From assembly GCA_038087875.1 (NCBI GenBank), contig CM075994.1, forward strand, positions 6,760,001 through 6,824,000: a stretch of 64,000 nt of DNA. The letters are read 5' to 3'. Origin of the DNA: Malacoraja senta (taxonomy: Eukaryota). Numbering within the stretch: position 1 is the stretch's first letter; each line of letters opens with the position of its first letter. Shown here piece after piece: positions 3,495 to 62,955 of this stretch. A program made the position numbers and the translations under genes. Below the pieces are notes generated by a model, which was not told the origin of the DNA, did no database searches, and saw nothing but the letters and a program-made list of their open reading frames with translations.

Positions 3495-3704
3495 CTTGAG
3501 CAGATAGGATGTATCTATACACTTCAGAATTCATTATGCTACTACCATCAGCAGTTGTACATCAATGATCTTTCAGCAGCCACACATGCCCAGGCCATAA
3601 CACCCCCACCACCGTGTTTCACAGATGAGGTGGTATGCTTTGGATCTTGGGCAGTTCCTTCTCTCCTCCATACTTTGCTCTTGCCATCACTCTGATATAC
3701 GTTA

Positions 3705-13278: not shown

Positions 13279-13520
13279 CACTCGACGATAAACGCTGACC
13301 GTGCAACTGATTAAAAAGGCTAAATTGTTATTCATCAGTCAGTCGACCTTCCTCGCTGTAGGTTTAAGAACGCGCTGACCCTATCAATTCTGGATCGGTG
13401 ACCAGCTTCCGTGATAAAGGAATCGGTCACACAGTTTTGACACAGCGATTTGTGGCAAGACTTCACTGGATACAAAACCTCACGGGCAGAAGGCACTAGC
13501 GAGCTCAGGGACACCAGAGG

Positions 13521-13529
13521 TTATAAAGG
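13521..13529 (+). promoter_or_regulatory. Candidate TATA box of the TRIM-derived gene
   Basis: TTATAAAGG in non-repetitive DNA about 85 nt upstream of the first downstream ATG (GGAACCATGT, 13609), with no intervening ATG. Confidence 0.45.
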
Positions 13530-13608
13530 ACCTCCGTTGTACTTGGTACGCAACATTGCCACCATTTATCTGACTGAGCCCCGGCCTGGCGCGTTGAAAC
13601 CGGGAACC

Positions 13609-13794
13609 ATGTACGAGTTGCTCTCCGAGAAAGATGAGCTGATGAAAGCGGAGCTGGAGAGAGAAGCGGACAAGATACTGGAAGAGATTGAGAGCAACCT
13701 AAAGAAGACCAGCGATGAGATGTCTTCCCTCGAGCACGCCCTCAGAAGCCTGCAGGACAACGATGACCTCCATGAAGCCTCCAAACTTCTCAAG
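13609..13794 (+). CDS. Exon 1 of a TRIM-derived coiled-coil gene (no RING or B-box)
   Basis: MYELLSEKDELMKAELEREADKILEEIESNLKKTSDEMSSLEHALRSLQDNDDLHEASKLLK followed by a phase-0 donor AAG|GTAAAG; resembles the second coiled-coil exon of TRIM39/69/A33-like proteins. Confidence 0.7.
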
Positions 13795-14174
13795 GTAAAG
13801 ACGGGCTTGAGTTTGAGTTTGAAGATAGATTTAAAAAAAATGCTGGAGTAACTCAGCGGGAGAGGAGGGTCACGGGGAGAACGTACAAAATCCGCACCAG
13901 TAGTCGGGATTGAACCCGGGTCTCCAGCGCTGTAAGGCAGCAACTCTACTGCTGCGCCACATATTCCTTCTCTCCAGAGATGCTGCCTGACCCGCTGACT
14001 TGTGTCCATCTTCAGTGTAAACCAGCATCTGCAGTTCCTTCCTCCACAGCTTGAGTTTGAGCCCAGTTTACTGTCACGTGCACCGAGTTACATGGAGTTG
14101 CTGCCTCACACCGCCAGAGACCCGGGTTCGATCCTGACCGCAGTTGCTGTCCTTAATGTGCAGGATAGAAGTAG

Positions 14175-28879: not shown

Positions 28880-31800
28880 ATTAATCAGCCAATATAAGCT
28901 AGGTTTGCTCTAGGCGAGCGGCCTGTCGGGAAGTGGCCTTGTCGAGGGAAGTGGCCTTGTGAGAAAAGTGTGAGTCTTTGGCTGAAGAATCTTCGGCGAG
29001 GAGGCTGAGGAGAGGAGACTACGCCAAAATTTGGAGAGGACGAGACGCGGTGAAGACATGACACGTAAGCTGATTCAGTGTGAGGTTTGCAGGATGTGGG
29101 AGGTCAGGGGCACTGATAGTGCCTCTGACTGCTACAACTGTGGAAAGTGTGTCCAGGTTCAGCTCCTGAAGGACTGTGTTGGGGCACTGGAGATGCAACT
29201 TGATGACCTCAGGATCATCCGGGAAAACGTGAGTTTCCTGGACAGGACCTACAGTAAGATCGTTACATTTAAGATACCCGAAGAGAGAAGGTGGGTGATG
29301 ATGGGGAATGGAAGGAAGCTTGGAGTACAGGGGACCACGGGGGATGTACCTCTTGAAAACAGGTTCACCCTCTTGGAAGCTGTCGGGGCAGAAGACACTG
29401 CCATTCTGAGCGGGGGACAGGTCTGCGAGTCAAAATGTGGTGCTGAGGCAAAACCAAAGAGACAGACGTCAGGCAGAGCCATGGTAGTCGGGGACTCCAT
29501 CGTGAGAGGTACAGACAGGGGTTTCTGCGGCAACATGCGGGATTCTAGGATGGTGTGTTGCCTCCCTGGTGCCAAGATCCAGGACGTCACGGACCGATTG
29601 CAGGGCATCTTCAAGGGTGAAGGTGAGCAGCCGGAAGTGGCAGTGCATGTCGGCACAAATGATGTCGGGAAGAAGAGGAAAGAGATTCTGCAGCGTGATT
29701 TCAGAGAACTCGGAAGAAGGCTGAAAAGCAGAACCTCCAGGGTGGTTATCTCCGGTTTGCTTCCAGTTCCTCGTGCTGGTGAGGGCAGGAACAGGGAGAT
29801 AGGGGATCTGAAAGTGTGGCTGAGGAGCTGGTGCGGGAAGCAGGAATTTAGATTCTTAGACCACTGGGATCTGTTTTGGGGGAAGGGTGAATGGTACAAA
29901 AAAGGGTGAATTGCACCTTAACAGGAGGGGGGACCAGCATTCTGGCAGGCAGGTGTGCGACTGCTACACAGGTGGGTTTAAACTGAATAGTGGGGGGGGG
30001 GGGGGGGGGACCAACTGGAGATATAACGATGGATTTAAAGAGAAAGAGAGTATAAGAAAAGTTAAGAAAGATACCATAATTAACGGGGCAGAAAGCTCAG
30101 GAAGGGATAGGAGAGTAAGGCCAAGTGAAATAGGAATCAATGAGAAAGGTGAAGGGAGTAATGGATTAAAAGTATCATATGTGAATGCATGAAATACAAG
30201 AAATAAAGTGGATGAGCTTGAGGCTCAGTTAGAAATTGGCAAGTATGATGTTGTGGGAATTACAGAGACATGGCTGAAAGAGGGCCAGGGATGGCAACTG
30301 AATATTCAAGGGTATAAATCCTATCGAAAAGACAGACAGGTGGGTAGAGGGGGTGTGGTAGCTCTGTTGGTGAGGAATGAAATTCAGTCCCTTGCGAGGG
30401 GTGACATAGAATCAGGAGATGTAGAGTCGGTATGGATCGAACTGAGGAATTGTAAGGGTAAAAAGAGCCTGATGGGAGTTATCTACAGGCCCCCAAACAG
30501 TAGCCTGGATATAGGGTGCAAGTTGAATCAGGAGTTAAAATTGGCGTGTCGCAAAGGTAATGCTGTGGTTGTTATGGGAGACTTCAACACACAGGTAGAC
30601 TGGGAAACTTAGGTTGGTGCTGGATCCCAAGAAAGGGAGTTTGTGGAGTGATAGATTCTTAGAGCAGCTTGTACTGGAGCCTACCAGGGAGAAGGCAATT
30701 CTGGATTTAGTGTTGTGTAATGAACGGGATTTGATAAGGGAACTCGAGGTAAAGGAGCCATTAGGAGATAGTGACCATAATATGATAAGTTTTAATCTAT
30801 AATTGGAGAGGGAGAAGGGAAAATAGGAAGTGTCAGTATTACTGTTGAAAAAAGGGGACTATGGTGCCATGAGAGAGGAGCTGGCCAAAGTTGACTGGAA
30901 AGAGACCCTAGCAGGGATGACAGTGGAACAACAATGGCAGATATTTTGGGGAATAATACAGAAGATGCAGGATCGGTTAATTCCAAAGAGGAAGAAAGAT
31001 TCTAAGGGGAGTAAGAGGCTACCGTGGCTGACAAGGGAAGTCCAGGACAGTATAAAAATAAAAGAGAAGTATAACATAACAAAGATGAGCGGGAAGCCTG
31101 AGGATTGGGAAACTTTTAAAGAGCAACAGAAGATAACTAAAAAGGTAATACGGGGGGGGGGGGGGGAAGATGAGGTACGAAGGTAAGCTAGCCAAGAATA
31201 TAAAGGAGGATAGCAAAAGCATTTTAAAGTATGTGAAGAGGAAAAAATTAGTTAAGACCAAAGTTGGAGACTGAAACAGGTGAATTTATTATGGGGAACA
31301 AGGAAATGGCAGACGAGTTAAATAGGTACTTTGGATCCGTCTTCACTAATGAAGACACAATCTCCCTGATGTACTAGTGGCCAGAGGATCTAGGGTGACG
31401 GTGGAACTGAAGGAAATGCACATTAGGCAGGAAATGGTGTTGGGTAGACTGATGGGACTGAAGGCTGATAAATCCCCAGGGCCTGATGACTGCATCCCAG
31501 GGTACTTAAGGAAGTGGCTCTAGAAATTGTGGATGCATTGGTGATCATTTTCCAATGTTCTATAGATTCAGGATCAGTTCCTGTGGATTGGAGGGTAGCT
31601 AAAGTTATCCCACTTTATTCGGTTTAATGTGGATAAATGTGAGGGTATCCACTTTGGTGGCAAAAACAGGAAGGCAGATTATTGTCTGAATGGTGTCAAG
31701 TTGGGAAAAGGGGAAGTACAACGAGATCTGAGGGGTCCTTGTTCAAGTAAGCATGCAAGTACAGCAGGCAGTGAAGAAAGCTAATGGCATGTTGGCCTTC

Positions 31801-33645: not shown

Positions 33646-36600
33646 TAGAATCAAATACACAGGACAAGATGTTAAGAAGTCCCTTGTGCCAATAGGTGGG
33701 GAGCATTTCACGACATTCGTTGATTGTTGAGAGTGGTAGACGCTCAACATCGGGGGGGGGGGGGTGGGGGGGGGGTAACCTTCAGGGCAGTTGGGCACAG
33801 GACACATCATCAGTAGTGTACCCTTGCATCACTGGGTGTTTCGGCCTTTTAACACTATACACCCTCCACAAGGGCGGCCCGCTGCAGGATGATCAACCCT
33901 CAGCGCATGTCCCGTGTCAAACCGTCCCAAAGATTCACCCCGACATATTGGGGCCCAGCATGGGTCTTTCCGCTTGAGCTAAATCCACCGGCTGCTTCTT
34001 TCAGCCGCCTCTGAGAGTGATCTTATGGTCTTCTGCAGAGCCTGACCGTGGATTCCAAGCTCCTTCAGCAGTCTGATGGTAGATGACGCAACAAATCCTC
34101 TGCATCCCACTTCAACTGGATAGACTTTGGTGTTCCAGCCACGCTGCGTTGCCTCTGCTGCAAGCTCTGCGTAGCGCAGCTTCTTATGCTCATAGGCCTC
34201 CTCAACAGAGTTCTCCCATGGAACTGTGAGCTCTATGATGTAAGCAGTCTTCTGTGAAGGGGACCAGAACACCAAGTCTGGCCTGAGGTTGGTGGAAGCA
34301 ATTTCAGGTGGATAAATTAGTTGTCGGCCGATGTCCGCCAGCATCCTCCAGTCACGGGCCCTGCATTGGTTTCCTTCTTCTGATCTGGTGGAAGGAAGTT
34401 TAGAAGTTTTCTGTCCTTCTCGGACAAAGGTTGTTACCCTTAGGGGAGGGGGGTTGCTTGCTCTCGGAGGCAAGGAGTTGGTCGCACACCGCCTGTTCTC
34501 AAGGGCTGATGCCAGGCTTTTTAGTACCTGATTATGCCGCCACGTGTATCTCCCTTGCGTGAGGCTGGTCTTGCAGCCTACCATGATGTGTTTGAGGGTC
34601 GCTGGAGTTGGGCAGATGGCACAGGTTGGATCCTCGCCGTACCACTGATGGAGGTTCTTTGGTGATGGAAGCACGTCATATGTCGCTCTGATGATGAAGC
34701 TGATCTTGCTTGCTTCCATTTCCCATAGTTCTTTCCAGCTGATCTTCCTCCGCTCCACACCTTCCCACTGCATCCATTGCCCCTACATGGCAAGAGAGAC
34801 CGCCTTTGCACTTCTTGCGGCCTCCTCCTGTCGCCGCACCTCCTCAACCACCAACGTCCTCCGCTCTGATGTTGTGGCCTTTCGCCAAGTTGGTTTACTT
34901 GTCATAAGGCCAAAGCCTCCTCTTCCCTGCTGGACTTGCCCCACTATGTCTTTGTGCCTCAGGGCTGATGAAGCTTGCTGTACTGCATCAGATGGTGTCC
35001 ACTTCCGGCCAGTTGCTAGGGGCGGCGCAACAGCACTGATGATCTTGTCTCTAGAGTCCCTCAGTGTCATCTGGAGTCTTACTTTAGAACATTTATATTC
35101 CTCTGTTAGACTAGTGAGAGGTAGTTCCAGGACCCCTTTGCCATAGAGGCCGATGTTAGTTAGACATCGTGGGACACCGAGCCATTTCTTCACGTATGAA
35201 GTTATGGTTCGCTCCATCTTCTCCACAGTTGTTATTGGGGCTTCATAAACGGTCAGTAGCCACATTGTCCGAGGAAGGAGTCCAAACTGTAGGCACCAGA
35301 GCTTCAGTTTCCCAGGCAGTAGGGTCTGATTGATGTTTTCCAGTCCATTGACAATTTCTTGCCTTAGTTGTTGCACCTGCTCTTTGTCCTTGAGACTTGC
35401 GTTATACCATCTTCCCAGGCTTTTAACTGGCTGCTCAGACACTGTTGGTATTGGGTCGTCACCGATACAGAACCTTGTGTCTCTAAGCACCCCCTTGGCT
35501 ATGGAGATGCTTCGAGATTTACTTGGTTTGATTTTCATTCGGGCCCACTTGATGTTCTCCTGCAGCTTTCCAAGTAGCCGCTTGGTGCATGCTGCAGTAG
35601 TGGTTAGTGTTGTCATGTCGTCCATGTATGCCCTGATGGGTGGCAGACGGAGCCCAGCCCTGGTTCGTTCACCGCCCACCACCCATTTTGAGGCCCTGAT
35701 GATGACTTCCATGGCCATTGTAAAGGCCAAGGGTGAGACTGTGCAGCCTGCCATGATGCCTACTTCCAAGCGCTGCCATGTTGTACTGAAGTCAGCTGTT
35801 GTGAAGCACAGCTGCAGGTCTTGGTAATATTTCTTGACCAGTGTGGTGATGAGCTCTGGTACATGAAAAAAGGCAAAAGATTCCCAAAGGAGTTCATGGG
35901 GAACTGAACCAAATGCATTGGCCAGATCGAGGAAGATCACATGTAGGTCTCTCTTGTCCTTCTTAGCTGCTTGGATCTGGTGCCAGATCATGCTTGTATG
36001 CTCCAAGCAGCCCGAAAATCCTGGGATTCCTGCTTTCTGTACAGATGTATCAATGTACTTGTTTGTTACCAGATAGGTGGACAGCCTTTGTGATACAATG
36101 CTAAAAAAGATTTTTCCCTCGACGTTGAGGAGACATATTGGCCGGAATTGGCTGATGTCTGACGAATCCTTTTCTTTAGGTATTAGCACGCCGCCGGCCC
36201 TTCGCCACGCCTTAGGTATTGTTTGCTTCTTTCACACCACCCTCATGAGCTTCCATAGAAAGTGTAACACATCCGGTGCGTTCTTATAGAGCTTGTATGG
36301 TACTCCGTTTGGCCCCGGAGCTGATGCTGCTCTTGCTCGCCGGACCGTGTTCTCCACCTCTTTCCATCTCGGAGGGCTGGTGTCCATGTTGAATTCAGGT
36401 GGTTGAATAGGCTGAATGTCATGTGGGATGACTAACTGCTCATGCCTTTTCGTGTCTTTGTGGGCCTTTTCCAGATGTTCCTCCAATTCCTGTTTTGATG
36501 TTTTCAAAGTTCCACTTTTTTCCTTTGCGAAGAGGTCTTTGATGAACTTGAAAGGGTTTTTATAGAACCGTGTTCTTGTGTGTTCTTTCTTCTTGCGAAG

Positions 36601-37489
36601 TTTCCTCAAGTTCTCTGCTTTTCGCAAGGTTGCCAATCGGTTCTTGATGTCCTCTTGGAGTAGCATGAGACCTTCTCTCTCTGCGTCAGTTGCTTTTTTC
36701 CATTGCTTTTTCAACTGTCTCCTCTCTCTGATTAGCCTCTCGATCTCCTGCTGCCTCCTGGACTTGATTGGTGTTGGTCATTTCTTTCCACCTCTCCCTT
36801 TACTCACCCCAAACCGTTCTTCTCCATAGCTGTAGATTGTGTTGCCCATCCTTTCAAGCTTTTCCACTGCTGTGCCCGCTTGTTGCTCCAAGATATGTAT
36901 AAGGTCACTGTTGACCGTCTCCCACTCTTTCTTTTCAACAGCCTTGGGCCATTTCACTCCAGGTTTGTGCCCATTGATCTTTCCCTCCAATGGAGGTCTT
37001 TGTAGTTGTTGCGTGGGCTCCTCCACCGGCATTTCTGTGCTTGTATCACCCTCTTCAGTGACATGGGTGCTGATGCTCTGCGAACTTTGGTTTGTGTCCC
37101 GTCGCTGTGCTTCACTCGACTGATTTGACTGGTTGCTTCGTAAGAAGTACTGGTCAATGCGAGGCCCATGTTTCTGCTCTCTCAAGCACTTTTTCTTCCC
37201 TTGGTGGATCTTCAAGCCCTTCACTGATGTTAATTTCTCCCAACCACAGATGCACACCTGAAGTTTGTGTCCCGCAGCTGTTGTGGATGTCTCATGTGCC
37301 ATGCTCTCCTTGTCAGTAGTCGTTTCCGTTCCTGGGTCTGTAACCGTGTTATCAATCGGTGAGCCATCTTCCGCCCCCGCTCTCGCAGGCTCTAGGGGTA
37401 TTCTCTTTATTTTACTTTTAGTAGCATTTAGCGGGTGTCTCCAACTAGCTGAAACGGCGTTGGGGACTGCTGTCATGGGTAGCTAGCCC
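33646..37489 (-). mobile_element. Hero-clade (R2 group, RLE) non-LTR retrotransposon, near full length
   Basis: One reading frame from 37476 to 33979, broken only by in-frame stops. N-terminal zinc finger CICG..GLKIHQGKKKC; RT motifs FRPICLLN, FLDLANAFGSVPH, GIMAGCTVSP, AYMDD; CCHC knuckle CAIC..TLKHIMVGC; RHNQVL; PD-(D/E)xK nuclease RPD...IIELTVPWE...KKLRY. Confidence 0.9.
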
Positions 37490-39459: not shown

Positions 39460-39520
39460 ATGTCTGGGTACCACCTGTGCGTCTATTTACCCCTGCTTCT
39501 TGACCTCGTCTCCTCCGCAG
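39460..39520 (+). CDS. 2-Ig/5-TM gene exon 1: signal peptide
   Basis: ATG at 39460, MSGYHLCVYLPLLLDLVSSA, donor GCAG|GTAAGC, phase 1; lies in non-repetitive, relatively CpG-rich DNA. Confidence 0.75.
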
Positions 39521-45885: not shown

Positions 45886-46200
45886 GGAAAACGTTGACGC
45901 CAAGCTTGGAGTTGTTCGGTGCCATCGGATCATTCGTTGTGCTACCTGGTCCCGGCGAAAAAGAAGTTCAAAATGTGCGACACCTTCGGTGGGCATTTGG
46001 AAATATCCGAATTATAGATTATTTTTACCCCTCATTGCAAAACGCCACATTCACCAACTTCTATAAGGATCGATGCGAGTTCAACTATTCCAACGGATCG
46101 GTGGTGCTGAAAGGTTTAACAGCACAAGACCAAGGTCTCTATAAAGTTGACGTTGATTTAAACGCCAACAACAGCAGAGTCATCAAACTAAATGTTATGG
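45886..46200 (+). CDS. 2-Ig/5-TM gene exon 2: V-type Ig domain lacking the B-F disulfide (CD2/CEACAM/HEPACAM-like)
   Basis: TTTCTCTTGGTCCTCAG| (alternative in-frame acceptor gives exon start 45859). GKTLTPSLELFGAIGSFVVLPGPGEKEVQNVRHLRWAFGNIRIIDYFYPSLQNATFTNFYKDRCEFNYSNGSVVLKGLTAQDQGLYKVDVDLNANNSRVIKLNVM, then G|GTGAG; C-strand W, YxxR, NGSxxL and DxGxY motifs; phase 1/1. Confidence 0.9.
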
Positions 46201-47872: not shown

Positions 47873-48145
47873 AACGACTGTTGTCTCCTTCAATTACCAC
47901 TGGTATTGCCATGGTGGATAAGGACATTAATCTGACATGTCAAGTGGCTGGAGGGAAGGCGAGCTCAGTTCGATGGATGAAAGACGGCCAAATGATAACA
48001 AATAACGATGACACATATCGCTTATTGCGAAACAACTTCACCTTGCAGATCCAGAATGCCCAAAAATCAAATTGTGGAGTCTACACTTCCATCCTGGAAA
48101 ATCATGTCAGTGAAGTGAACCATTCTTACCATCTCTTCATTCATG
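47873..48145 (+). CDS. 2-Ig/5-TM gene exon 3: C2/I-type Ig domain
   Basis: TTCTTCATCAG|; ERLLSPSITTGIAMVDKDINLTCQVAGGKASSVRWMKDGQMITNNDDTYRLLRNNFTLQIQNAQKSNCGVYTSILENHVSEVNHSYHLFIH, then G|GTGAGT; phase 1/1. Confidence 0.9.
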
Positions 48146-48923
48146 GTGAGTAACATCCGTTAGTTTAGTTTAGCTTAAGGTTTCAGTTTTAGATCAAGAT
48201 CAGCTTTATTATTGTCACGTGTGCCGAGGTACAGTGAAAAGCTTTGTTTTGCATGATATCTAATCAGATCGGAAAATTACATAAATATAACCGTCAAACT
48301 CAAGTACAATAGGTAGAGCAAATGGGAGCTGCAGAGTGCAGAATATAGTTCTCAGCATTGTCGCGCATCAGTTCCAGAGACAAAGTCCAATGTCCGCAAT
48401 GGGACTTGTTCACTAGCTTATGGAAGGTCCATTCAGAAGCCTGATAACAGAGGGGAAGGAAGCAGTTCCTGAGTCTGGTGGTGCGTGCTTTCAAGCTTCT
48501 GTACCTTCTGCCGGACGGGAGCGGATGGAGGAAGGAATGACCGGGGAGGGACAAGTCTTTGATTATGTTGGCTGCTTTTCCGAGGCAGCGTGAAGTGTAG
48601 ATGGAGTTGATGGTGGGGACTCTGGTCTGTGTGATGGACTGGGCTACATCCACAACTGCCCGCAATTTCTTGTGGTCTTGGGCAGAGCTGTTCCCAAACC
48701 AAGCTGTGATACAACCCGACGGTATGTATTCTACGGCGCATCTGCAGAACTTTGTAAAAGACGTTGTGGTATCATTAGAGTCAGAAGAAGGTTCTCAACC
48801 CAAAATGTCACCTATTCCCTTTCTCCAGAGATGCTTCCTGACCCACTGTGTTACTCCAGCCCATTGTGTGTATCTTTGGAGACATGTTGAATTTCCTTAG
48901 CCTCCTCAGGTAATTTAGTTTAG

Positions 48924-48955
<32 letters not shown>

Positions 48956-50738
48956 TCTGTCACAAGTACCGAGATACAGCAGAAAGCTTTTTATTACGTG
49001 CTACCCAATCAGAAGAAAGACAATACATGATTGTAATCGAGCCGTACACAGTGTACAGATATAGGATAAAGGGAATAATGTTTAGAGCATCTGCAGTGGG
49101 AGAACTCAGAGAGCTGTGGACGCAGCTCAGACCATCACACAAGCCAACCTCACTTCCATTGGCTCCATCTCCATCTCATGCTGCCTCGGCAAGGCCAGCA
49201 GCATAATCAAGGACTAGTCGCACCCCAGTCACTCTCTCTTCTCCCCTCTCCCATCGGGCAAAAGGTATTGTAGTATGAAAACACACACCACCAGATTCAG
49301 GGACAGTTTCTTCCCAGCTGTTATCAGGCAACTGTATCATTCTACCACAACCAGAGAGCAGTGCTGAACTACTATCTACCTCATTGGTGACCCTCAGACT
49401 ATCTTTGATCGGACATTGCTGGCTTTACCTTGCACTAAACGTTATTCCCTTATCATGTATCTGTAAACTAAATGGATTTACTGGTTAGCACGGAACAAAA
49501 GTTTTTCACTGTGCCTCGGTACACGTGACAATAAACTACACTAAACAGTTCCACTTCTGAGTCCAGTATGCCGAGAGTTGCCTGAATTGGCTGCCATTTG
49601 TAGAGGCGTTAGTGTATCTTCTTTGCTGTTGCATAAGTATGGCTGGTTAGATATTGTTCGACTACACTGCAATATTTCCAGAACACCTCTGCTCAATCCG
49701 CCTAAACCCTAAACATACCTGATCTCCCGGTTGCCAAACACTTTAACTCCCCCTCCCATTCCCACACTGACCTTTCTGTCCTGGGCCACCTCCACTGTCA
49801 GAGTGAGGCTCAGCGCAAATTGGAGGAACAGCACCTCATATTTTGCTTGGGCAGCTTACACCCCAGCGGTATGAACATTGACTTCACTAACTTCAAGTAG
49901 CCCTTGCTTTCCCCCTCTCTCTCCGACGTACACTTGGGACAATTTACACTTGTACCAACCCAATTAACCTACAAACCTCTCTCCATCCCCCCCCCCCTCC
50001 GCTTCCCAGTTCTCCGACCAGTCTGACTGTCCCTGATTACATTGTATCTCTGTTTGCTCTGTTGTCACCTTCTGCCAGCCAACAATGAGTTATTCTACAT
50101 TCTCCTTGAACTTCATCCCCGTTGTAAACACTGCCCAGTCCATCATCAGCTCTGACCTCCCTACCATCGAGGGGATCTATCGCAGTCGCTGCCTCAAAAA
50201 GGCTGCCAGCATCATCAAGGACCTACACCATCCTGGCCACTCACTCATCTCCCCACTGCCTTCAGGTAGAAGGTACAGGAGCCTGAAATCTGCAACGACC
50301 AGGTTCAGGAACAGCTACTTTCCCACAGCCATCAGGCTATCAAACTCAACTCAAACAAAACTCTGAACATTAATAGCCTATTGCACTTTATCTGTTTATT
50401 TATGTGTGTATATATATTCAATGATATATGGTCACACTGATCTGATCTGTTCTGTATTTATTTATGCCTACTATATTCTGTTGTGTTGAAGCAAAGCAAG
50501 AATTTAATTGTTCTATCTGGGACACATGACAATGAACTCTCTTGAATCTTGAATCTTGCCTCGTCTTCACACCTTACACTTCCTTATCTCTGTGACCACC
50601 CCCCTCTCCCCTGACTCTCAGTCTGGAGAAGGGTCTCAACCCGAAACGTCACCCATGCCTTCTCTCCAGAGATGCTGTCTGTCACGTTGAGTTACTCCAG
50701 CATTTTGTGTCTATCTTTGACGTAAACCAGCATCTGCA

Positions 50739-51287
50739 GTGGTCTCCTAATTTGAGGAAGGACATCCTTGTGATTGAGGCAGTGCAGCGTAGGTTCACGA
50801 GATTGATCCCTGGGATGGCGGGACTGTCATATGAGGAAAGATTGAAAAGACTAGGCTTGTATTCACTGGAGTTTAGAAGGATGAGGGGGTATCTTATAGA
50901 AACATATAAAATTATAAAAGGACTGGACAAGCTAGATGCAGGAAAAATGTTCCCAATGTTGGGCGAGTCCAGAACCAGGCGCCACAGTCTTAGAGTAAAG
51001 GGGAGGCCATTTAAGATTGAGGTGAGAAAAAACCTTTTCACCCAGAGAGTTGTGAATTTATGGAATTCCCTGCCACAGAGGGCAGTGGAGGCCAAATCGC
51101 TGGATGGATTTAAGAGAGAGTTAGATAGAGCTCTAGGGGCTAGTGGAGTCAAGGGATATGGGGAGAAGGCAGGCACGGGTTATTGATAGGGGACAATCAG
51201 CCATGATCACAATGAATGGTGGTGCTGGCACGAAGGGCCGAATGGCCTCCTCCTGCACCTATTTTCTATGTTTCTATGTTTCTATGC
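50739..51287 (+). mobile_element. Young CR1 3' fragment immediately upstream of the TM1 exon
   Basis: WSPNLRKDILVIEAVQRRFTRLIPG...GYGEKAGTGY*, 3'UTR with a (TTTCTATG)n tail, inserted into a Penelope-type terminal repeat. Confidence 0.9.
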
Positions 51288-51321
51288 AGTTCCTTCCAAC
51301 ACATAATATTTCCTATTTCAG

Positions 51322-51438
51322 GTATTCCTTCTCTGCATAGCACAACCCTGAGCCTCTCCATTGTGGCTCTGATTTTTGGCTGCACAGTATTCATCGGCAT
51401 CATCGTTTCTTGTTTACTGGGAGGCAGTACTGCAATAA
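51322..51438 (+). CDS. 2-Ig/5-TM gene exon 4: TM1
   Basis: TTTCCTATTTCAG|; GIPSLHSTTLSLSIVALIFGCTVFIGIIVSCLLGGSTAI; A|GTAAGA; 117 nt, phase 1/1. Confidence 0.85.
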
Positions 51439-52742
51439 GTAAGAGATATTTATTTACATTTTTGTACCGATCACTATTGAAAATTAAACAATCATCGCAA
51501 CGTGAGGGGGAGATATTTTTTTAAAAGCCTCAAAGAGCTGGGGTAACTCTATCGGCACGGTGGCGCAGCGGTAGAGTTGCTGCCTCAAAGCGCCAGAGTC
51601 CCGGGTTCGATCCCGACTACGGGTGCTTGTCTGTACGGAGTTTGTTCGTTCTCCCCGTGACCTGCGTGGGTTTTCTCCTGGCTGCTCCGGTTTCCACTCA
51701 CGGTCCAAAGACGTGCGGGTATGTAGGTCGATTGGCTTCAGTAAAAAATGTGAATTGCCCCTAGTGTGTGTAGGATAGTGTTAGTGCATGTGGTAATCAC
51801 TGGGTGGCGTAGACTTAGTGGGCCGAAGGGCCTGTCTCCATGCTGTATCTCTAAAATTTGTACAAAAAATGGCTTTTCAACAAATGGATATACTGGCCAG
51901 AATGGAAATAAGGAGGAATTTCTTTCGCCAGAGTGTGGTGAATCTGTGGAACCCATTGCCACGAGGCTGTGGATGCCAAATGCTTGGGTATTTTTAAAGT
52001 AGAGATTAATAGGTTATTGATTAGTAAGGGCGTCAAAAGCTACCAGTAGAAGGGAAGAGAATGCGATTCAGCGTTTAGTTTAGTTTATTGTCACGTGTAC
52101 CGAGGCACAGTGAAAAGCTTTCTTGTTGTGTGCTAACCAGTCAGCGGAAAGACAATACGTGATTACAATCGACCCGTCCAGAGTGTACACATACATGTTA
52201 AAGTTAATGACGTTTAGTGCAAGATCAAAGATAATGCAAGGGTCTCCAATGAGGTAGATAGTAGCTCAAGACTGCTCTGCAAAATAGATCAGCCAACATC
52301 GAATGGTAGAACAGGCTCGATGGGCTGAATGGTCTAATTCTGCTCCTCTGTCTTATGGATGCTGATTCGGACCTTCTGAATGGTGTCATTCTACAATTCC
52401 AGGTTTAGTTTCGTTTAGTTTAGAGATACAGCGCGGAAACAGGCTCTTCGGCCCACCGAATCTACGCCTACCAGCGATCCCCCACACACTAACACTATCC
52501 TACGCACACGAGGGACGATTGACAATTATACCAAGCCAAATAGCCTACAAACCTGTACGTCTTTGGAGTGCGGGTGGAAACCGGAGCACCCGTGGAAAGC
52601 CCACGCAGGCCACGGGGAGAACGTACAAACTCGGTACAGACAAGCACCCGTGGTCAGGATCAAACCTGGGTCTCTAGCGCTGTGAGGCAGCAACTCTCCG
52701 CCCCTGTATTCTAATGTTGAAACTCATTGCTTATTTTTGCAG

Positions 52743-52844
52743 GTCTCCCGTCTCATCAAAAAATATTGCTATTCTTGCAGTTGGCGTCAATGGTATCGCT
52801 TGTCATACTCATGGCAGCAATTTGTTTCTGGGGGAAAACTTCAG
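52743..52844 (+). CDS. 2-Ig/5-TM gene exon 5: TM2
   Basis: TTATTTTTGCAG|; SLPSHQKILLFLQLASMVSLVILMAAICFWGKTS; CAG|GTAGAG; 102 nt, phase 1/1. Confidence 0.8.
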
Positions 52845-53759
52845 GTAGAGTATATGCTCCTGTTTCTCTCTTGGTCGGGTATTGCATATTGCACACTCTG
52901 TTATCGAGTAGGTCAGGTGGTAAGGCTGCAGAGAGATATCTGTGGTCATACTCTTTCTTCTACATTCCAAGTATAAGTTGTGGACACTGCCAAGTCCATC
53001 ACGGGCTCTGAGCTCTGACCATCCCACCATCGAAGCGATTTACCGGAATCGCTACATCAAAAAGGCAGCCAGCATCATCAGAGATCCACACCACCCTGGC
53101 CACGCACCCATTTCACTCCTGCCATCGGGAAGAAGGTACAGGAGCCTGAAAACTGTAACATCCAGTTACAGGAACAGCTTCTTCCCTACAGCCATCAGGC
53201 TATTAAACACTTCAACCTCAAATAAACTCTGAACTACATAGAATATTATTGTTTGTTTTTCTGTGTGTACGTACTGTGTGTGTGTGCGTGTGTGTATGTA
53301 TATAAATACCGAATGTTAAATGTTTTTCGCAGATGCTGCCTGACCTGCAGATTTTTTCCAGCATTTTGTTCATGTTCATAAGAGATAGCAGCAGAATTAG
53401 GCCATTTGGCCCATCAAGCCTACTCTGCCATTCAATCATGGCTGATCTATCTCTCCCTCTCAACCCCATTCTCCTGCCATCTCCCCATAACCTCTGACAC
53501 CCGTACTCATCAAGAATCTATCAATCTCCGCCTTAAAAATATCCACTGACTTGGCCTCCACAGCCTTCTGTGGCAATGAATTCCACAGATTTACCACCCT
53601 CTGGCTAAAGAGGTTCCTCCTCATCTCCTTTCTATAAGTACAGTACGTTCTTTCATTCTGAGGCTATGGCCTCTAATCATGGACTCTCCCACTAATGGAA
53701 ACATCCTCTCCACATCCACTCTACCCAAGCCTTACACTATTCGGTATTGTTAACAAAAT

Positions 53760-56352
53760 GTTATCCCACGTTTTAAGAAAGGCGGGAGAGAGAAAACAGA
53801 GAATTATAGACCAGTTAGCCTGACATCGGTGGTGGGGAAGATGCTGGAGTCAATTATAAAAGATGAAATAGCCGCTCATTTGGATAGCAGTAACAGGATC
53901 GGTCCGAGTCAGCATGGATTTATGAAGGGGAAATCATGCTTGACTGATCTTCTGGAGGATGTAACTCGGAAAATGGACAAGGGAGAGCCAGTGGATGTAG
54001 TGTTCCTGGACTTTCAGAAAGCATTTGATAAGGTCCCACATCAGAGATTAGTGGGTAAAAATTGGAACACATGGTATTGGGGGTAGAGTGCTGACATGGA
54101 TAGAAAATTGGTTGGCAGATATGAAACAAAGAGTAGGGATTAACGGGTCCCTTTCAGAATGGCAGGCAGTGACTAGTGGGGTACCGCAAGGCTTGGTGCT
54201 GGGACCGCAGCTATTTACAATATACATCAATGATTTAGATGAAGGGATTCAAAATAATATTAGCAAACGTGAACTGTGAGGAGGATGCTATGAGGATGAA
54301 GGGTGAATTGGACAGGTTGGGTGAGTGGGCAGATGCATGGCAGATGCAGTTTAATGTGGATAAATGTGAGGTTATCCACTTTGGTGGCAAAAACAGGAAG
54401 GCAGATTATTATCTGAATGGTGTCAGGTTGGGAAAAGGGGAAGTACAAATAGATCTGGGGTCCTTGTTCATCACTCACTGAAAGTAAGCATGCAGGTACC
54501 GCAGGCAGTGAAGAAAGTTAATGGCATGTTGACCTTCTAAACAAGAGGAGTTGAGTATAGGAGCAAAGAGGTCCTTCTGCAGTTGTACAGGGCCCTAGTG
54601 AGACCACACCTGGTGTATTATGTGCAGTTTTGGTCTCCAAATTTGAAGAAGCCATTCTTGCTATCGAGGGAGTGCAGCGTAGGTACACAAGGTTAATTCC
54701 CGGGACGGCGGGACTGTCATATGTTAATAGAACGGAGCGGCTGGGCTTGTATACTCTGGAATTTAGAGGGGATCTTATTGAAACATATAGATGAGAGGGG
54801 ATCTTATTGAAACATATAAGATTATTAAGGGATTTGACACGCTAGAGGAAGGAAACATGTTCCTGATGTTGGGGGAGTCCAGAACCAGGGCCACAGTTTA
54901 AGAATGAGGGGTAGGCCATTTAGATCACACGGTATTGGGGGTTCAGTATTAAATCACACGGTATTGGGGGTTCAGTATTGATGTGGATAGAGAACTGGCT
55001 GGCAAACAGGAAGCAAAGAGTAGGAGTAAACGGGTCCTTTTCACAATGGCAGGCAGTGACTAGTGGGGTACCGCAAGGCTCAGTGCTGGGACCCCAGCTA
55101 TTTACAATTTATATTAATGATCTGGACGAGGGAATTGAAAGCAACATCTCCAAGTTTGCGGATGACACTAAGCTGGGGGGCAGTGTTAGCTGTGAGGAGG
55201 ATGCTAGGAGACTGCAAGGTGACTTGGATAGGCTGGGTGAGTGGGCAAATGTTTGGCAGATGCAGTATAATGTGGATAAATGTGAGGTTATCCACTTTGG
55301 TGGCAAAAACGGGAAGGCAGACTATTATCTAAATGGTGGCCGATTAGGAAATGGGGAGGTGCAGCGAGACCTGGGTGTCATGGTACACCAGTCATTGAAA
55401 GTAGGCATGCAGGTGCAGCAGGCAGTGAAGAAAGCGAATGGTATGTTGGCCTTCATAGCAAGAGGATTTGAGTATAGGAGCAGGGAGGTTCTACTGCAGT
55501 TGTACAGGGTCTTGGTGAGACCACACCTGGAGTATTGCGTACAGTTTTGGTCTCCAAATCTGAGGAAGGACATTATAGCCATAGAGGGAGTGCAGAGAAG
55601 GTTCACCAGACTGATTCCTGGGATGTCAGGACTTTCATATGAAGAAAGACTGGATAGACTTGGCTTATACTCGCTAGAATTTAGGAGATTGAGAGGGGAT
55701 CTTATAGAAACGTACAAAATTCTTATGGGGTTGGACAGGCTAGATGCAGGAAGATTGTTCCCGATGTTGGGGAAGTCCAGGACAAGGGGTCACAGCTTAA
55801 GGATAAGGGGGAAATCCTTTAAGACCGAGATGAGGAAAAACTTTTTCACACAGAGAGTGGTGAATCTCTGGAACTCTCTGCCACAGAGGGTAGTTGACGC
55901 CAGTTCATTGGCTATATTTAAGAGGGAGTTAGATGTGGCCCTTGTGGCTAAAGGGATCAGGGGGTATGGAGAGAAGGCAGGTACGGGATACTGAGTTGGA
56001 TGATCAGCCATGATCATATTGAATGGCGGTGCAGGCTCGAAGGGCCGAATGGCCTACTCCTGCACCTATTGTCTATGTATCTATGTATCTAGAGCGGAGA
56101 TGAGGAAAAACGTTTTCACCCAGAGAGTTGTGAATCTGTGGAATTCTCTGCCTCAGAAGGCAGTGGAGGCAAATTCTCCGGATGCTTTCAAGAGAGAGTT
56201 AGATAGAGCTCTTAAATATAGCGGAGTCAGGGGATATGGTGAGAAGGCAGGAACGGGGTACTGAATGTGGGTGAGCAGCCATGATCACAGTGAATGGTGG
56301 TGTTGGCTCGAAGGGCCGAATGGCCTACTCCTGTACCTATTGTCTATTGTCA
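53760..56352 (+). mobile_element. Older CR1 (RT region to 3' end) containing a younger CR1 at 54924-56090
   Basis: Older copy: NYRPVSLT..GKMLE, QHGFMKGKSCLT, DFQKAFDKVPH, GVPQG, with frameshifts. Younger copy: intact 338-aa ORF 54978-55994 (GVPQGSVLGP, FADD). The older copy resumes at about 56092. Confidence 0.9.
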
Positions 56353-56478
56353 ATGAGGTCCCCCCTCATCCTTATTTCCAGCATCTGCAGTATATTTGAT
56401 TTTCCTTTGTGCCATGCCTCTTATTCACTGTAATTTTAATTTCAGTTATGAATTACTCATTTTTGTTTTCTATTATAG

Positions 56479-56604
56479 AATATTCTGGAATCATAGTGGC
56501 TACATTGGTGATTTTATGTATACTCCTAATACTGATCTTGGTTGCGATGTGCAGTATCAAGACATATGGCTGGGACTGGTTTAATAACATCTTGTCAACC
56601 AATT
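56479..56604 (+). CDS. 2-Ig/5-TM gene exon 6: TM3
   Basis: TTTTCTATTATAG|; EYSGIIVATLVILCILLILILVAMCSIKTYGWDWFNNILSTN; T|GTAAGT; 126 nt, phase 1/1. Confidence 0.85.
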
Positions 56605-57564
56605 GTAAGTTCAATCAAGAGATACGCTACGTTTTACAGAACGCAGTTATAATCACGAGTTAAATATTTCAGCAGTTGCTGCTTAATTTAACCAGTGGTA
56701 TGAATAATGACTCCTCTAACTTCAAGCAACCCTTGCTTTCCTTCTCTCTCCCTCCCTCCTACCCTTCCCAGTTCTCCGACCAGTCTGACTGTCCCCGATT
56801 ACATTATCTCTGTTGCTTTGTTTTCATATTCTCCTATTCTCCTAACAGTGATCTATTCTACATTTTCCTTGACCTGCATTTCTTTTGATACCTCATTTTC
56901 ACACCCTACCCATCCTTATCCCTGTGCCTCCCAGTCCCTTGACTCTCGGTCTGAAGAAGGATCTCGGCCCAAAACGTCTCCCATTCCTTCTAACCAGCGA
57001 TGCTGGCTGTCCCGCTGAGTTACTCCGGAGATTGTGTCTATCTTCGGTGTAAACCAGCTCCTGCAGTTCCTTCCTACACATTAACTTCATAGCTTAGTTT
57101 AGTTTAGTTTAGAGATAGTGTGGAAACAGGCCCTTCGGCCCACCGAGCCCACCACACTACCCTACACACACGAGTGACAATTTTTACATTTACCAAGCCA
57201 AGTAACCTACAAACCTGTATGTGTTTGGAGTGTGGGAGGAAACCGAAGATCTCGGAGAAAACCCACGCAGGTCATGGGGAGAACATGCAAACTCCGCGCA
57301 GACAGCACATGTAGTCAGGATCAAACCCGGGTCTCTGGCGCTGTCTAGCTCTACCGCTGCGCCACCGTGGCACCCTAATTATTAACGCCATTAATCTTTT
57401 TTAGTTCTGGTCAGCCCATTACTGGAAGGATGTGGAGGCATTGGAGAGGGTGTAGAAGAGGTTTACCAGGATGTTGCCTGGATTAGAGGGTATTAGCCTT
57501 TAGGAAGGGTTCGTAAAAAATTGGATTGTTTTCTTGGAGACCAGACATACGTAGGAAAAAAATT

Positions 57565-58215
57565 ATAGAAATAGACAATAGCTGCATGAATATGCCATTC
57601 GGCCATTCAGCCCTTCAAGCCATTCAATGGGATCATGGCTGATCATCCCCAATCAGTACCCCGTTCCTTCCTTCTCCCCATATCCCCTGACTCCGCTATC
57701 TTTAAGAGTCCTATCTAGGTCTCTCTTGAAAGTATCCAGAGAACCGGCCTCCACCGCCCTATGAGGCAGAGAATTCCACAGATTCACAACTCTCTGTGTG
57801 AAAAAGTGTTGCCTCGTCTCCGTCCTAAATGGCTTACACCTTATTCTTAAACCGTGGCCCCTGGTTCTGGACTCCCCCAACATCGGGAACATGCTTCCTG
57901 CCTCTAGCATGTCCAAACCCTTAATAATCTTATATGTTTCAATAAGATGCCCTCTCATCCTTCTAAATTCCAGAGTATACAAGCCCAGCCGCTCCATTCT
58001 GTCAGCATATGACAGTCCCACCATCCCGGGAATTAACCTTGTGAACCTACGCTGCAGTCCCTCAATAGCAAGAAATCTCCCCAAATTTGGAGACCAAAGC
58101 TGCACACAATACTCCAGATGTGGTCTCTCTAGGGCCCTGTACAACTGCAGAAGGACCTCTTTGCTCCTATACTCAACTCCTCTTGTTATGAAGGCCAACA
58201 TGCCATTCGCTTTCT
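57565..58215 (-). mobile_element. CR1 3' fragment
   Basis: ORF 57653-58201 is a CR1 ORF2 C-terminus, followed by 3'UTR. Confidence 0.9.
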
Positions 58216-60603
58216 ATGAGGCGCATAAATACAGTAGATTGTCAGGGCCTTTCTTCCCTGGGGTGGAAATATTAAATAATAGAGGCCATCGCTTTCAGGT
58301 TAGTTGGGAAAATTCAAAGGCGATATTTTTTAAAAGTGCGATACAGCGTGGAAACAGCCCCTTCAGCCCACTGAGTACGCTCTGATCAGCGATCACCCCA
58401 TACACCAGTCATAGAGTGATACAGTGTGGAATAGGCCCATCGGCCCAACTTGCCCACACGGGCCAACATGTCCCAGCTACACAAGTCCCACCATGGTCCA
58501 CATCCCTCCAAATCCGTCCTATCCATGTAACTGTCCAACTGCTTCTTAAACGTTGGGATAGTCCCAGCCTCAACCACCTCCTCTGGCAGCTTGTTCCATA
58601 AACCCACCACCCTTTGTGTGAAAAAGTTACCCCTCAGATTCCTATTAAATCTTTTCCCCTTCACCTTAAACCTGTGTCCACTGGTCCTCGATTCACTATC
58701 CTACACACTCAGGACAAGTTACAGAGGCCAATTAGCCTACAAACCTACACATCTTTAGATATGCGGGTTGTGGTCTTTTGCACAGAGACTGGTGGTTGCT
58801 TTGAACAAACTGCCAGCGTAGTGGAAGTAGCTTTGATAATGTTTTAAGCGACTTTTTTAAATAGTTGTTTAGTTTCGTTTAATTTTTAGTTTTCTTAAGT
58901 ATAGTTTAGATGACTTTAATTTAGTGTAATGTCATTTAGCTTAACTTGTTTAGCTTAGTTTAGATCGGTTTCGTTCAACTAATTTCAGCTAGTTTCACTG
59001 TCCTGATTAGAAATTACTGATTGAACACCTCATTGTCACCTTCCCCTCAGCTAACAGTGAATCATTCTGCATTTTCCTTGAGCTCTGACCCTAATGATCT
59101 CTTGTTCTCACACCTTACCCTTCCATATCTCTGTGCTTCCCCCTCCCCTGAGTCTGAAGAAGGGTCTCGACCCGAAACGTCACCCATTCCCTCTTTCCAG
59201 AGATGCTGCCTGTCCCGCTGAGTTACTCCAGCATTTTGTGTCCATCTTTAGTTCATCTTAGTTCATCTTAGTTCAGCTTTGCTTAGTTTCACTTAGTTTA
59301 ATTTAGCTTAGTTTTGTTTCGTGATACAGTGTTGGAACACCAAGGAACACACTGTTGGTGTAAACCCATATGATAATGTTGTTTAAGATGCTTTTAAATA
59401 CAGTAGGTGAGGACACAAAATGCTGGAGTAACTCAGCGGGACAGGCAGCACCTCTGGAGAAATGGAATAAGTGACATTTCAGGTCGAGACCATTCTTCAG
59501 ACTGAGAGTCAGGGGAAAGAGAAATGAGAGATATAGAGGGTGATGTAGAGAGATATAGAACAAATGAATGAAAGACATGCAAAAATGTAACGATGATCAA
59601 GGAAACAGACCATTGTTAGCTGTTTGTAGACAAAAATACTGGAGAAACTCAGCGGGTGAGGCAGCTTCTATGGAGCGAAGGAATTCCTTCGCTCCATAGA
59701 TGCTGCCTCACCCGCTGAGTTTCTCCATCATTTTTGTCTACCTTAGATTGTTCCAGCATCTGCAGTTCTTTCTTAAACATTGTTAGCTGTTTGGTAGGTG
59801 AGAACAAGTTACACACAATGAGCCTCAACAAGACAACTTTGAAGCTGGTATGACGGGTGGGGGAGGGATGGAGAGAGAGGGGTTACAAGGGTTACTTGAA
59901 GTTAGAGAAGTCAACATTCATACCACTGGGCTGTAAGCCGCCCAAGCGCAATATGAGATGCCGTTCCTCCAATTTGCTCTGACAGTGGAGGAGGCCCAGG
60001 ACAGAAAGGTCAGTGTGAGAATGGGAGGGGGAGTTAAAATGTTTGGCAACCGGGAGATCCGGTAGGTTCAGGCGGACTGAGCTAAGGTGTTCAGCGAAAC
60101 GATCGGCCAGTCTATGTTTGGTCTCGCCGATGTATGAGGGATTCGTTTAATGTCGCATCACGGTCGATACAGACACTGCAAGCTGAAGGATCTTTATCTT
60201 TGCTGTACTTTAGTTTAGCTTAGTTTAGAGATATAGCACGGAAACAGGCCCTTCGGCCCACCGAGTCCGCACCGACCAATGGTCCCCGCACATTAACACC
60301 ATCCTACACACACACTAGAGACAATTGTTACATTTATTCAAAGCCAATTAACCTACAAACCTGCACGTCTTTGGAGTGTGGGAGGAAACGGAAGATCTAG
60401 GAGAAAACCCACGCAGGTCACGGGTAGAACCTACAAACTCCGTACAGACAGCACCCGTAGTCGGGATCGAACCCGGGTCTCTGACGCTGCTGGCGCTGTT
60501 AGGCAGAAACTCTACCGCTGCGCCACCGTGCCACCCTGATGTTACAGTTACTGTTACGAAATTACTGTTCAAAACATTTTGACTGCATTTGATTTGTTGA
60601 CAG

Positions 60604-60699
60604 TGTGCAGAATTATGGTGGATGCAGTAACCCCAGTGGGCGGACTGATAGTTATTTTCTCATCTGGAATTCTGATAGCAGAGATATTGAAACAAGCTG
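60604..60699 (+). CDS. 2-Ig/5-TM gene exon 7: TM4
   Basis: TTTGTTGACAG|; LCRIMVDAVTPVGGLIVIFSSGILIAEILKQA; G|GTGAGT; 96 nt, phase 1/1; this frame is absent from the ORF track. Confidence 0.8.
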
Positions 60700-62850
60700 G
60701 TGAGTGTTAATTAATATAAATCGTTAAAATAAATTGTGAAAACCTTCGTTATAATAGACCATAGAAGCGGTGGGGGGCTGGGGGGGAAATGGGTCCGTTA
60801 TATTAGAGTAAGGGATTACCGAGCAATAGAGTATCATTGTATAAGTAGTAGATACAACGAACTGCAGATGCTGGTTACAAAATCCTGGAGTAACTCAGCG
60901 GGACAGGCAAGATCTCTGGAGAGAGGGAATGGAGTGCCATTTCGGATCGCGACCCTTCTTCAGACACCATTAAACACCATTCGGGTCTCGACCCGAAACG
61001 TCACCCATTCCTTCTCTCCAGAGTTGCTGTCTGGCCCGCTGAGTTACTCCAGCATTTTGTGTCTATCTTCGGTGTAACTCAAAGGGTCAGGCAACATCTC
61101 TGGAGAACATGGACAGGCGACGTTTCGAGTCAGAAAAGATAGAACAAAAAAATTACTGAAGTAACTCAGCGGGACACGCAGTCTATTCCTTCTCCGCAGA
61201 GATGCAGCCTGACCCACTGGGTTACTCCAGCATTTTGTGTCTATCGTCTGTATTAACCAGCATCTGCAGTTCCTTCCTACACAACGAACCATTCTACATG
61301 TCCTGACCATCATCTGCTTTGATCTGTCATTTTCACACCTTACCCTTCCATATCCTTGTGTCTCCCTCTCCCCTGACTCTCAGTCTGAAGAAGGGTCTCA
61401 ACCTGAGACGTCGCCCATTCCTTCCCTCCAGAGATGCTGCCTGTCCCGCTGAGTTACTCCAGCTTTTTGTGTCTGTCTTCGATGTAAACCAGCATCTGCA
61501 GTTCCTTCCTACGCGTTTTGGGTCGGGGCCCTACTTCAGACTCTGGGTCCGGAACTGGGCCTGGAATTCGGGTGGGTTAATGGCCCCGGACTGCTGGCGA
61601 CCGTGGGAGAGGGGAGGATCGGCGGAGTCGATGATCGCGCGCGGCTGGAGTGCGGGTAGGGTCGGCGGTGTGGACAGCCGGGCCTGGAATCGGCCCGGCG
61701 GAAGCCTTGTGCAGAAACAAAGAACCGCAGATGCTGCCTTACACCAAAGACAGACACAAAGTGGCGGAGTAACTCAGCAGATCAGGCAGCAGCATCTCTG
61801 GAGAGAAAGGAATGGGTGACGTTTCGTAAGTTCATAAGCTCATAAGTTAAGAGGAGCTGAATTAGGCCATTCGGCCCATCAGGTCATTCAACATTGGCTG
61901 TTGGAGTGGCGGAGTAGACTTTCGGAGTTTGGGGGTCGGGATCCTTCTTCAGACTCATCGGCATGAGTCGGTAGTGGTGGTGGCGGTAGTAGGTCCACCC
62001 TGGAGCGGCAATGGGAGGCGGTGAGGGCTGGGGGTGATGTCGGCAGCCTCCACCATAACCTATATCCATTATAAAGAGGTCCGTAGTAACGAGGGCTTAC
62101 TGTAATCTTTTGTTTCGTTTTGTTTAGATTAGTGTAGTTTAGTGTAGTTTAGTGTAGTTTAGTTTAGTTTAGTTTAGAGATACAGTGCAGAAATAGGCCC
62201 TTCCTTGGATCTGAATTTGATTTCAAGGCTTCTCATAGTAACTTGCAAGAATTCGTTTAGTTTACAGATACAGCACAGATAAAGGCCCTTCGGCCCACCA
62301 AGTCCGCACCGACCAGCGATCTCCGCTCATTAACACTACCTTACACAAACTAGGGACATTTTTTATCTTTATACCAAGCCAATTAACCGGTGGAGTTGCT
62401 GCCTCACAGCACCAAAGACCCGGGTTCGATCCCAACTACGGGTGCTGTCTGTACGGAGTTTGTAAGCTCTCCCCGTAACCCGCGTGCGTTTTCTCCATGA
62501 TCTCCAGTTTCCTCCCACACTCGAAAGACGTACAGGTTAATTGGTTTGGTATAAATGTAAATTGTCCCAAGTGTGTGTAGGATAGTGTTTGTGTGCGGGG
62601 ATCGCTGGTCGGTGCGGACTCGTTGGGCCAAAGGGCTGTTTCTGTAAACCAAACTAAACTAATTCTTGTGAGTTACTATGGGAAGCCTTGAAATCAAATT
62701 AAGATCCTAGGAAGAGGCCATTCGGCCTGCTGTATCTGTGCTGTCTTTCACTCTACACTTTGCTAATTAGACCTACAGTTTATAATGACAAATGCTGGAG
62801 TAACTATCATTTTATACGTTTATAATTTACGTTCTTTTGTCTATCGACAG

Positions 62851-62955
62851 GAAAAGGCTGTGAATCCCCAGACAATCTTCTATCAAGTATTCTCCCTGCC
62901 GTCATTGTGCCATCAGTTGTCTTTGTTATATTCTTTGCAAGTTACGCCATACTGT
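62851..62955 (+). CDS. 2-Ig/5-TM gene exon 8: extracellular-loop Cys and TM5
   Basis: TTCTTTTGTCTATCGACAG|; GKGCESPDNLLSSILPAVIVPSVVFVIFFASYAIL; T|GTAAGT; 105 nt, phase 1/1; this frame is absent from the ORF track. Confidence 0.8.

Follow-up and report, generated by a model that had tools for sequence, protein, structure and literature searches.

A predicted disulfide between an Ig domain and a membrane loop in an unnamed five-helix protein family of jawed vertebrates

Proteins of the CD2/SLAM group combine a Cys-free V-type immunoglobulin (Ig) domain with a following C2 domain, are single-pass or linked to glycosylphosphatidylinositol (GPI), and carry immunoreceptor tyrosine-based switch motifs (ITSMs) in their signalling members. 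HEPACAM is single-pass as well, and SKINT proteins join an IgV-IgC ectodomain of the butyrophilin type to several transmembrane (TM) helices. CEACAM proteins have a Cys-free V domain, then a C-type domain with a Cys pair, on one TM helix or a GPI anchor (PMC4079198). CD47 is the 'don't eat me' protein of humans. It consists of one IgV domain and five helices, with a C15-C245 disulfide between the Ig domain and the second outer loop and an RVVSWF linker (PMC8410850; PMC10902115). CD47 mutants with Cys changed to Ser lose SIRP-alpha binding and signalling (PMC8410850; PMC10902115; PMC2785349), and the protein is described as having a unique fold and as the sole 5-TM receptor known in the immune system (PMC8410850). 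Here we describe a gene in a 64,000-nt stretch of Malacoraja senta DNA (contig CM075994.1 of assembly GCA_038087875.1, positions 6,760,001 to 6,824,000; the window, whose own numbering is used below). By its sequence, the gene is a member of an unnamed jawed-vertebrate family in which two CD2/CEACAM-type Ig domains stand on five predicted helices. The original prediction for this locus had proposed that a Cys in the membrane-proximal Ig domain is tethered to a Cys in the TM4-TM5 loop, as in CD47.

The gene and its two conserved cysteines

To build the gene model, we used two orthologues as tblastn guides and checked splice ends and the open frame. The eight resulting exons are flanked by AG/GT and are all in phase 1; joined, they give 398 codons without a stop over 23.5 kb of the window. 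The encoded order is signal peptide, IgV, IgC2/I and five predicted helices, with one hydrophobic segment in each of the five membrane exons. Compared with Leucoraja-cluster proteins, the model shows 85-86% identity; for Rhinoraja the value is 75%, and for shark proteins 37-39%. Orthologue residues 399-456 had no tblastn match inside the window, and so the exon for the cytoplasmic tail is placed beyond it. Orthologue P0001 is complete on one 1,847-base contig, a length that would fit a spliced transcript since the window gene spans many kilobases; among the datasets listed as containing exon 3, none was an RNA sample. The features of the gene are as follows.

39460..39520, + strand: exon 1, predicted signal peptide (residues 1-20); orthologue tblastn, GT donor, open frame
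45886..46200, + strand: exon 2, V-type Ig without the canonical B-F Cys pair (CD2/CEACAM type), with a single, lineage-limited Cys84; tblastn, Pfam V-set on the orthologue, fold matches to CD58, CD48 and CEACAM1
47873..48145, + strand: exon 3, membrane-proximal C2/I-type Ig; Pfam I-set E 5.9e-14, 87% identity to a skate orthologue
47938..47940, + strand: Cys148, canonical B-strand Cys whose usual partner is lost in Malacoraja senta; Cys in 40/40 rows covering the position
48073..48075, + strand: Cys193 (TGT), non-canonical E-F Cys, predicted tether; Cys in 42/43 rows
48088..48090, + strand: Ser198 (TCC), replacing the canonical F-strand Cys; Cys in 43/43 relatives, same base in runs X1 and X2
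51322..51438, + strand: exon 4, linker and predicted TM1; tblastn, open frame, AlphaFold2 model
52743..52844, + strand: exon 5, predicted TM2; tblastn, open frame, AlphaFold2 model
56479..56604, + strand: exon 6, predicted TM3 and inner loop; tblastn, open frame, AlphaFold2 model
60604..60699, + strand: exon 7, predicted TM4; tblastn, open frame, AlphaFold2 model
62851..62955, + strand: exon 8, second outer loop (GKGCESP) and predicted TM5; acceptor AG before 62851, tblastn, open frame
62859..62861, + strand: Cys367 (TGT), TM4-TM5 loop Cys, predicted tether partner; Cys in 41/43 rows, model loop 364-369

Both cysteines named in the original prediction were found where it had put them, one in the E-F stretch of the membrane-proximal Ig domain (within KSNCGVY) and one, alone in the TM4-TM5 loop, in the GKGCESP segment that opens the eighth coding exon. 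In our 43-row alignment A5, which runs from sharks to platypus, C193 and C367 are nearly universal (42 and 41 rows), and C367 is the most conserved Cys of the membrane part. Of the residues next to C193, G194 is kept in 39 rows and D192 in 33; in this gene the D-x-G-x-Y motif starts with N. When only the 11 elasmobranch genes were compared (30-94% identity), C148, C193 and C367 were invariant in all of them, C367 being one of just six invariant positions among the 182 of the membrane part. As controls for the E-F position we used titin, Robo2, DCC and Dscam, taking each Ig domain with an alignment across it and leaving out a duplicate DCC entry; among the entries listed, 0 of these 19 distinct domains has a Cys there.

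The two cysteines are also kept and lost together, as the original prediction had expected of orthologues. We grouped 89 family proteins (88 plus the window model) into 39 clusters at 88% identity, having left out the non-family carp NCAM2 (P0004) and an unrelated scallop repeat protein (P0062) before counting. Three clusters could not be scored, since P0032 lacks the C2 domain and P0043 and P0046 lack the TM5 exon. In the remaining 36, with three motif misses settled by reading the alignments by eye, 35 had both Cys, one had neither and none had only one. The exception is a basking shark protein, P0049 (XP_078422820.1), with Ser and Arg at the two sites; its sister P0051 retains both Cys. We ruled out that P0049 is a decaying gene because, over the 33 columns conserved in at least 90% of rows, it departs at exactly two, those of C193 and C367. 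If each Cys is lost once, the two losses would coincide in a single cluster with a chance of about 1 in 36. Taken together with the predicted structure below, this pattern argues that C193 and C367 probably form a disulfide, by which the lower Ig domain would be held to the helices.

Topology, predicted structure and competing bond partners

For a disulfide, both cysteines have to lie on one face of the membrane. Family-mean net charges were +1.35 for the TM1-2 loop, -1.16 for TM2-3, +2.98 for TM3-4, -0.28 for TM4-5 and +2.61 for the tail. Under the positive-inside rule inner loops carry more positive charge, and since the loop charges alternate as this rule expects, they point to an N-out five-pass topology. 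An AlphaFold2 run with 5 sequences gave a mean predicted local distance difference test score (pLDDT) of 40 and was discarded. The model of skate orthologue P0007, which has the same numbering, was built on the 43-sequence alignment and reached pLDDT 80.9 with a predicted template-modelling score (pTM) of 0.61. It has helices at 220-250, 257-289, 293-318, 331-363 and 370-401, and C367 lies within loop 364-369, between two of them. C193 directly precedes strand 194-201, whose hairpin partner, strand 206-213, leads into the linker and then into TM1 at residue 220. Because the partner strand runs into this linker, C193 is placed at the membrane end of the Ig domain: the prediction has it where strand F begins, facing the point where strand G ends and a few residues from the TM1 linker. 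Hydropathy, loop charges and model thus agree with the five helices and the shared outer face of the original prediction, with the N-terminus and both Cys predicted outside.

Apart from the tether, the inner TM3-TM4 loop has a mean of 1.7 Cys, which are candidate palmitoylation sites. Cys333 (60606-60608), at the inner start of TM4 and present in 8/11 elasmobranch genes, is another such candidate.

The membrane-proximal Ig domain of this gene carries a further change, absent from the original prediction. Five residues downstream of C193, at the canonical F-strand Cys site, stands Ser198. Every row of A5 has Cys there (43/43), and among the 38 clusters with a C2 domain only this gene has Ser. 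We compared exon 3 with contigs of sequencing runs X1 and X2 and found zero differences, which rules out a sequencing or assembly error; X1 and X2 are two samples of one organism from one study, X1 being possibly the window's own source and X2 having a depth of 2.3. Contigs from two other organisms (X3 and X4) also span the Ser198 site and show no change there among the differences listed (5/24 and 2/3, respectively, lie outside that listing). This suggests, though not securely, that a small clade shares Ser198. In the same exon, 9 of 14 changed codons relative to X3 and 11 of 15 relative to X4 alter the residue, a hint of fast protein evolution.

With Ser198, the B-strand C148 is left without its canonical partner. 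For Malacoraja senta only, one could propose that C193 has replaced the lost F-strand Cys and pairs with C148, leaving C367 free; Ser198 is real by the X1 and X2 contigs, and C148 has been retained. However, C193 occurs alongside an intact B-F pair in 42/43 relatives, which means that it was not acquired to replace a lost Cys. It also lies five residues along the strand from the core position; for it to pair with C148, the strand would have to slip in register, yet W160 and Y196 are retained. C367, too, is retained in this gene. Pairing of the E-F Cys with the B-strand Cys, which the original prediction had named as a threat to its proposal, is therefore answered for the family, and for Malacoraja senta, where the F-strand Cys is gone, we consider it the least probable of the explanations weighed here. 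From the sequence, Cys148 in this species is likely a buried free thiol, with the C193-C367 tether persisting.

Several points weigh against an intra-chain tether. The free C148 of Malacoraja senta is a complication for it, and the pTM of P0007 is too low for the orientation of the Ig part to the bundle to be secure. Annotated isoforms P0008, P0010, P0019 and P0020 skip exon 8, and some products would therefore lack C367. In addition, the joint loss is a single event, and it fits a bond within one chain and a bond between chains alike. If C193 and C367 joined two copies of the protein into a covalent dimer or oligomer, joint retention would be expected equally, and the predicted placement of both Cys on the outer side is what this would demand. 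Against such a bond, C193 lies opposite the end of strand G, by a TM1 linker of 3-4 residues, so that the loops of its own chain are nearest, and the CD47 precedent is intra-chain (PMC8410850). We regard the inter-copy bond as unlikely.

The single co-loss would also be coincidental if the two Cys were conserved for separate reasons, C193 for another partner and C367 as a lipidated or structural residue. The partner of C193 could be another protein or, in tetrapods, a further Cys that we found at the start of strand D in five of six tetrapod-clade representatives (P0052, P0058, P0059, P0061 and P0072, with Ambystoma P0071 lacking it); by sequence this D-strand Cys is a possible rival partner there, and it too weighs against the tether. 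Yet no elasmobranch representative among those listed has it, none of the 36 clusters keeps one Cys alone, and the TM4-TM5 loop is not positive like the inner loops, which makes separate conservation very unlikely in our judgement.

We thus favour the intra-chain C193-C367 disulfide. Such a bond would clamp the lower Ig domain to the helices and keep the ectodomain at a fixed tilt; the Cys-free V domain would then face a partner, on another cell, at a set angle. By analogy with CD2 and CEACAM adhesion receptors, that V domain may be the binding face for the partner. The cytoplasmic tails are short and varied, with an ITSM in 0/36 and a loose match to the immunoreceptor tyrosine-based inhibitory motif in 2/36. 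Because of this, any signal might be passed on by the bundle or by partners of it, in the way proposed for CD47, a suggestion that we put at somewhat less than an even chance.

Variants of the layout were seen within the family. Annotated or predicted forms missing single TM or Ig exons are P0008, P0010, P0013, P0015, P0017, P0019, P0020, P0025, P0032, P0034, P0038, P0039 and P0051; since all exons are phase 1, loss of a single exon stays in frame and would flip the downstream topology or remove the tether. Two V or two C2 domains occur in some members (P0031, P0033, P0043). Five shark proteins (P0003, P0009, P0029, P0035 and P0043) carry one more Cys, nine residues ahead of the B-strand Cys and so near the CD47 tether position, which is eight ahead. 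In the same five the TM2-TM3 outer loop is lengthened by a segment starting with E-V-C. A second Ig-to-loop disulfide is possible in these proteins, as read from their sequences. Extra Cys and segment were likely gained once, because four of the carriers form one clade; P0038 has the extra Cys and lacks the E-V-C segment.

The family and its relation to CD47 and other Ig receptors

Members were seen in rays, sharks, salamanders, a caecilian, turtles and platypus. Word-based sequence searches yielded the ray and shark relatives, and the closest named proteins to the window gene are from skates and rays. A profile of the membrane part, run against 1.84 billion proteins, gave 35 matches, of which 34 are Ig plus multi-helix proteins of this family; the 35th is the scallop protein excluded above. 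Ten of the 35 were identified by name (Cetorhinus, Mustelus, Pleurodeles, Ambystoma, Rhinatrema, platypus LOC100681856, turtles and the scallop), and most members are labelled uncharacterized. In the ESM Atlas, a 110-member chordate cluster that bears no specific name matches the family (score 0.98; template-modelling score of the membrane part 0.82), and in the Atlas structure search with the membrane part the family's own cluster alone exceeded a template-modelling score of 0.6. The Atlas feature search with the membrane part gave no usable match, and viral contigs scanned with the membrane alignment gave 601 pattern matches, none of which was confirmed. In a tree made with a quick method, tetrapod rows make up one side of a starred branch and batoid rows that of another. 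In Cetorhinus, Carcharodon and Mustelus, several paralogues per species lie on contigs of the same size (96.3, 115.8 and 140.6 Mb), which suggests a tandem cluster.

The V-C2 part resembles CD2/SLAM and CEACAM proteins most. Its best fold matches were CD58 (Z 14.4, root-mean-square deviation 2.9 A over 168 residues), CD48 (Z 14.2, 3.1 A over 171) and CEACAM1 (Z 13.8), and mouse CEACAM1 was the top Foldseek match (E 1.8e-13) at ~20% identity. With CD2/SLAM proteins (CD58, CD48, NTB-A, CD2) the family shares the V plus C2 tandem and the Cys-free V domain, but it has five predicted helices and no ITSM in any scored tail. CEACAM proteins share the N-terminal Cys-free IgV and the IgC-type domain, as given in PMC4079198, and differ in their one TM helix or GPI anchor. 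Given the five predicted helices, the family is neither CD2/SLAM nor CEACAM proper. Several shark and turtle members bear the automatic RefSeq label HEPACAM-like, which rests on the Ig part. As to the SKINT layout, the V domain here lacks the B-F pair.

With CD47 and the poxvirus CD47-like proteins, the family shares a signal peptide, an Ig ectodomain, five helices and a short tail (PMC8410850; PMC2785349), as well as the TM4-TM5 loop Cys that in CD47 is bonded to a non-canonical Ig Cys. The membrane part is encoded by five exons in both, the CD47 side being our inference: exon 2 encodes the IgV and exons 8-13 the tails (PMC10902115), which leaves exons 3-7 for the membrane part. Unlike CD47, the family has two Ig domains, the V domain lacks the canonical B-F disulfide, and the linker is G-I-P-S-like with no RVVSWF. 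The candidate tether Cys lies five residues before the F-strand position, whereas CD47 Cys33 lies eight before the B-strand Cys41 (PMC10902115).

Searches gave no sign of membership in the CD47 family. Pfam V-set_CD47 scored E 0.38 and 11 bits on one of two orthologues, below its cut-off of 21. Membrane profiles of 3 or 13 sequences found no CD47 chain in the PDB at E up to 10, the Pfam CD47 family was not matched by 3 members and was absent from the best 25 of 47 families for 13 members, and no CD47-like protein was among the 35 membrane-profile matches. Among the matches listed, fold searches of the PDB with the whole model gave only Ig domains and no CD47; Ig domains fill that list, and it is no test of the membrane fold. 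The viral library likewise gave only Ig matches among those listed, and the Atlas structure search with the membrane part, a non-exhaustive one, listed no CD47 cluster. By sequence, then, the protein is not a CD47 family member, as Ig number and type, tether position, linker and membrane sequence all differ; by analogy, it resembles CD47 in layout and probable tether. Of the tether in the original prediction, built from an Ig position other than CD47's, the co-conservation and the predicted same-side topology stand; the CD47-like mechanics that it suggested, with effects on ligand binding and signalling, stay hypothetical.

Common descent is kept open because five exons for five helices are shared. 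One preprint places the origin of cd47 in the bony-fish ancestor (10.1101/2024.07.14.603411). It is possible, if doubtful, that the family is sister to or source of CD47, with the exon-per-helix module in common. It would then have been present in the shark-tetrapod ancestor, expanded to a fast-evolving shark cluster and been kept to platypus, with the tether rewired (and doubled in one shark subfamily at a CD47-like position).

Surrounding DNA and meaning of the family

Retroelement fragments are plentiful in the vertebrate DNA of the window, with many shorter pieces resembling long interspersed nuclear elements throughout, and no neighbouring host gene was identified within its 64,000 nt. 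Other features are as follows.

33982-37482, - strand, and 28986-31183, + strand: retroelement remnants
34786-36231, - strand: reverse transcriptase frame, Pfam RVT_1, E 4.9e-24
28986-29906, + strand: GDSL-like frame, Pfam scan
13441-13848, + strand: open frame of 136 codons, coiled-coil in appearance and unmatched in Pfam; may be an exon that belongs to a neighbouring gene or to a mobile element
about 3300-3500: run of 200 N (assembly gap), adjoining long dinucleotide repeats

In the titles and abstract openings covered by our literature search (subscription journals and supplements lay outside it), we found no description of the family, and none of six member locus ids appeared in a paper. 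The available parts of PMC13262535 and of the preprint cited above do not mention it. The C193/C367 pair is real and the disulfide likely, and this is likely a CD47-style design in an unnamed family.

If Ig domains on five helices, with a Cys tether to the same loop, occur in another vertebrate family besides CD47, then either the design has two separate origins or there is an older relative of CD47 that has gone unrecognised. In the first case the tether would be a general need of Ig-on-bundle receptors; in the second, the origin of CD47 would become testable. The family's natural variants, with no tether, a lost core disulfide or a possible double tether, can probe the role of the bond.

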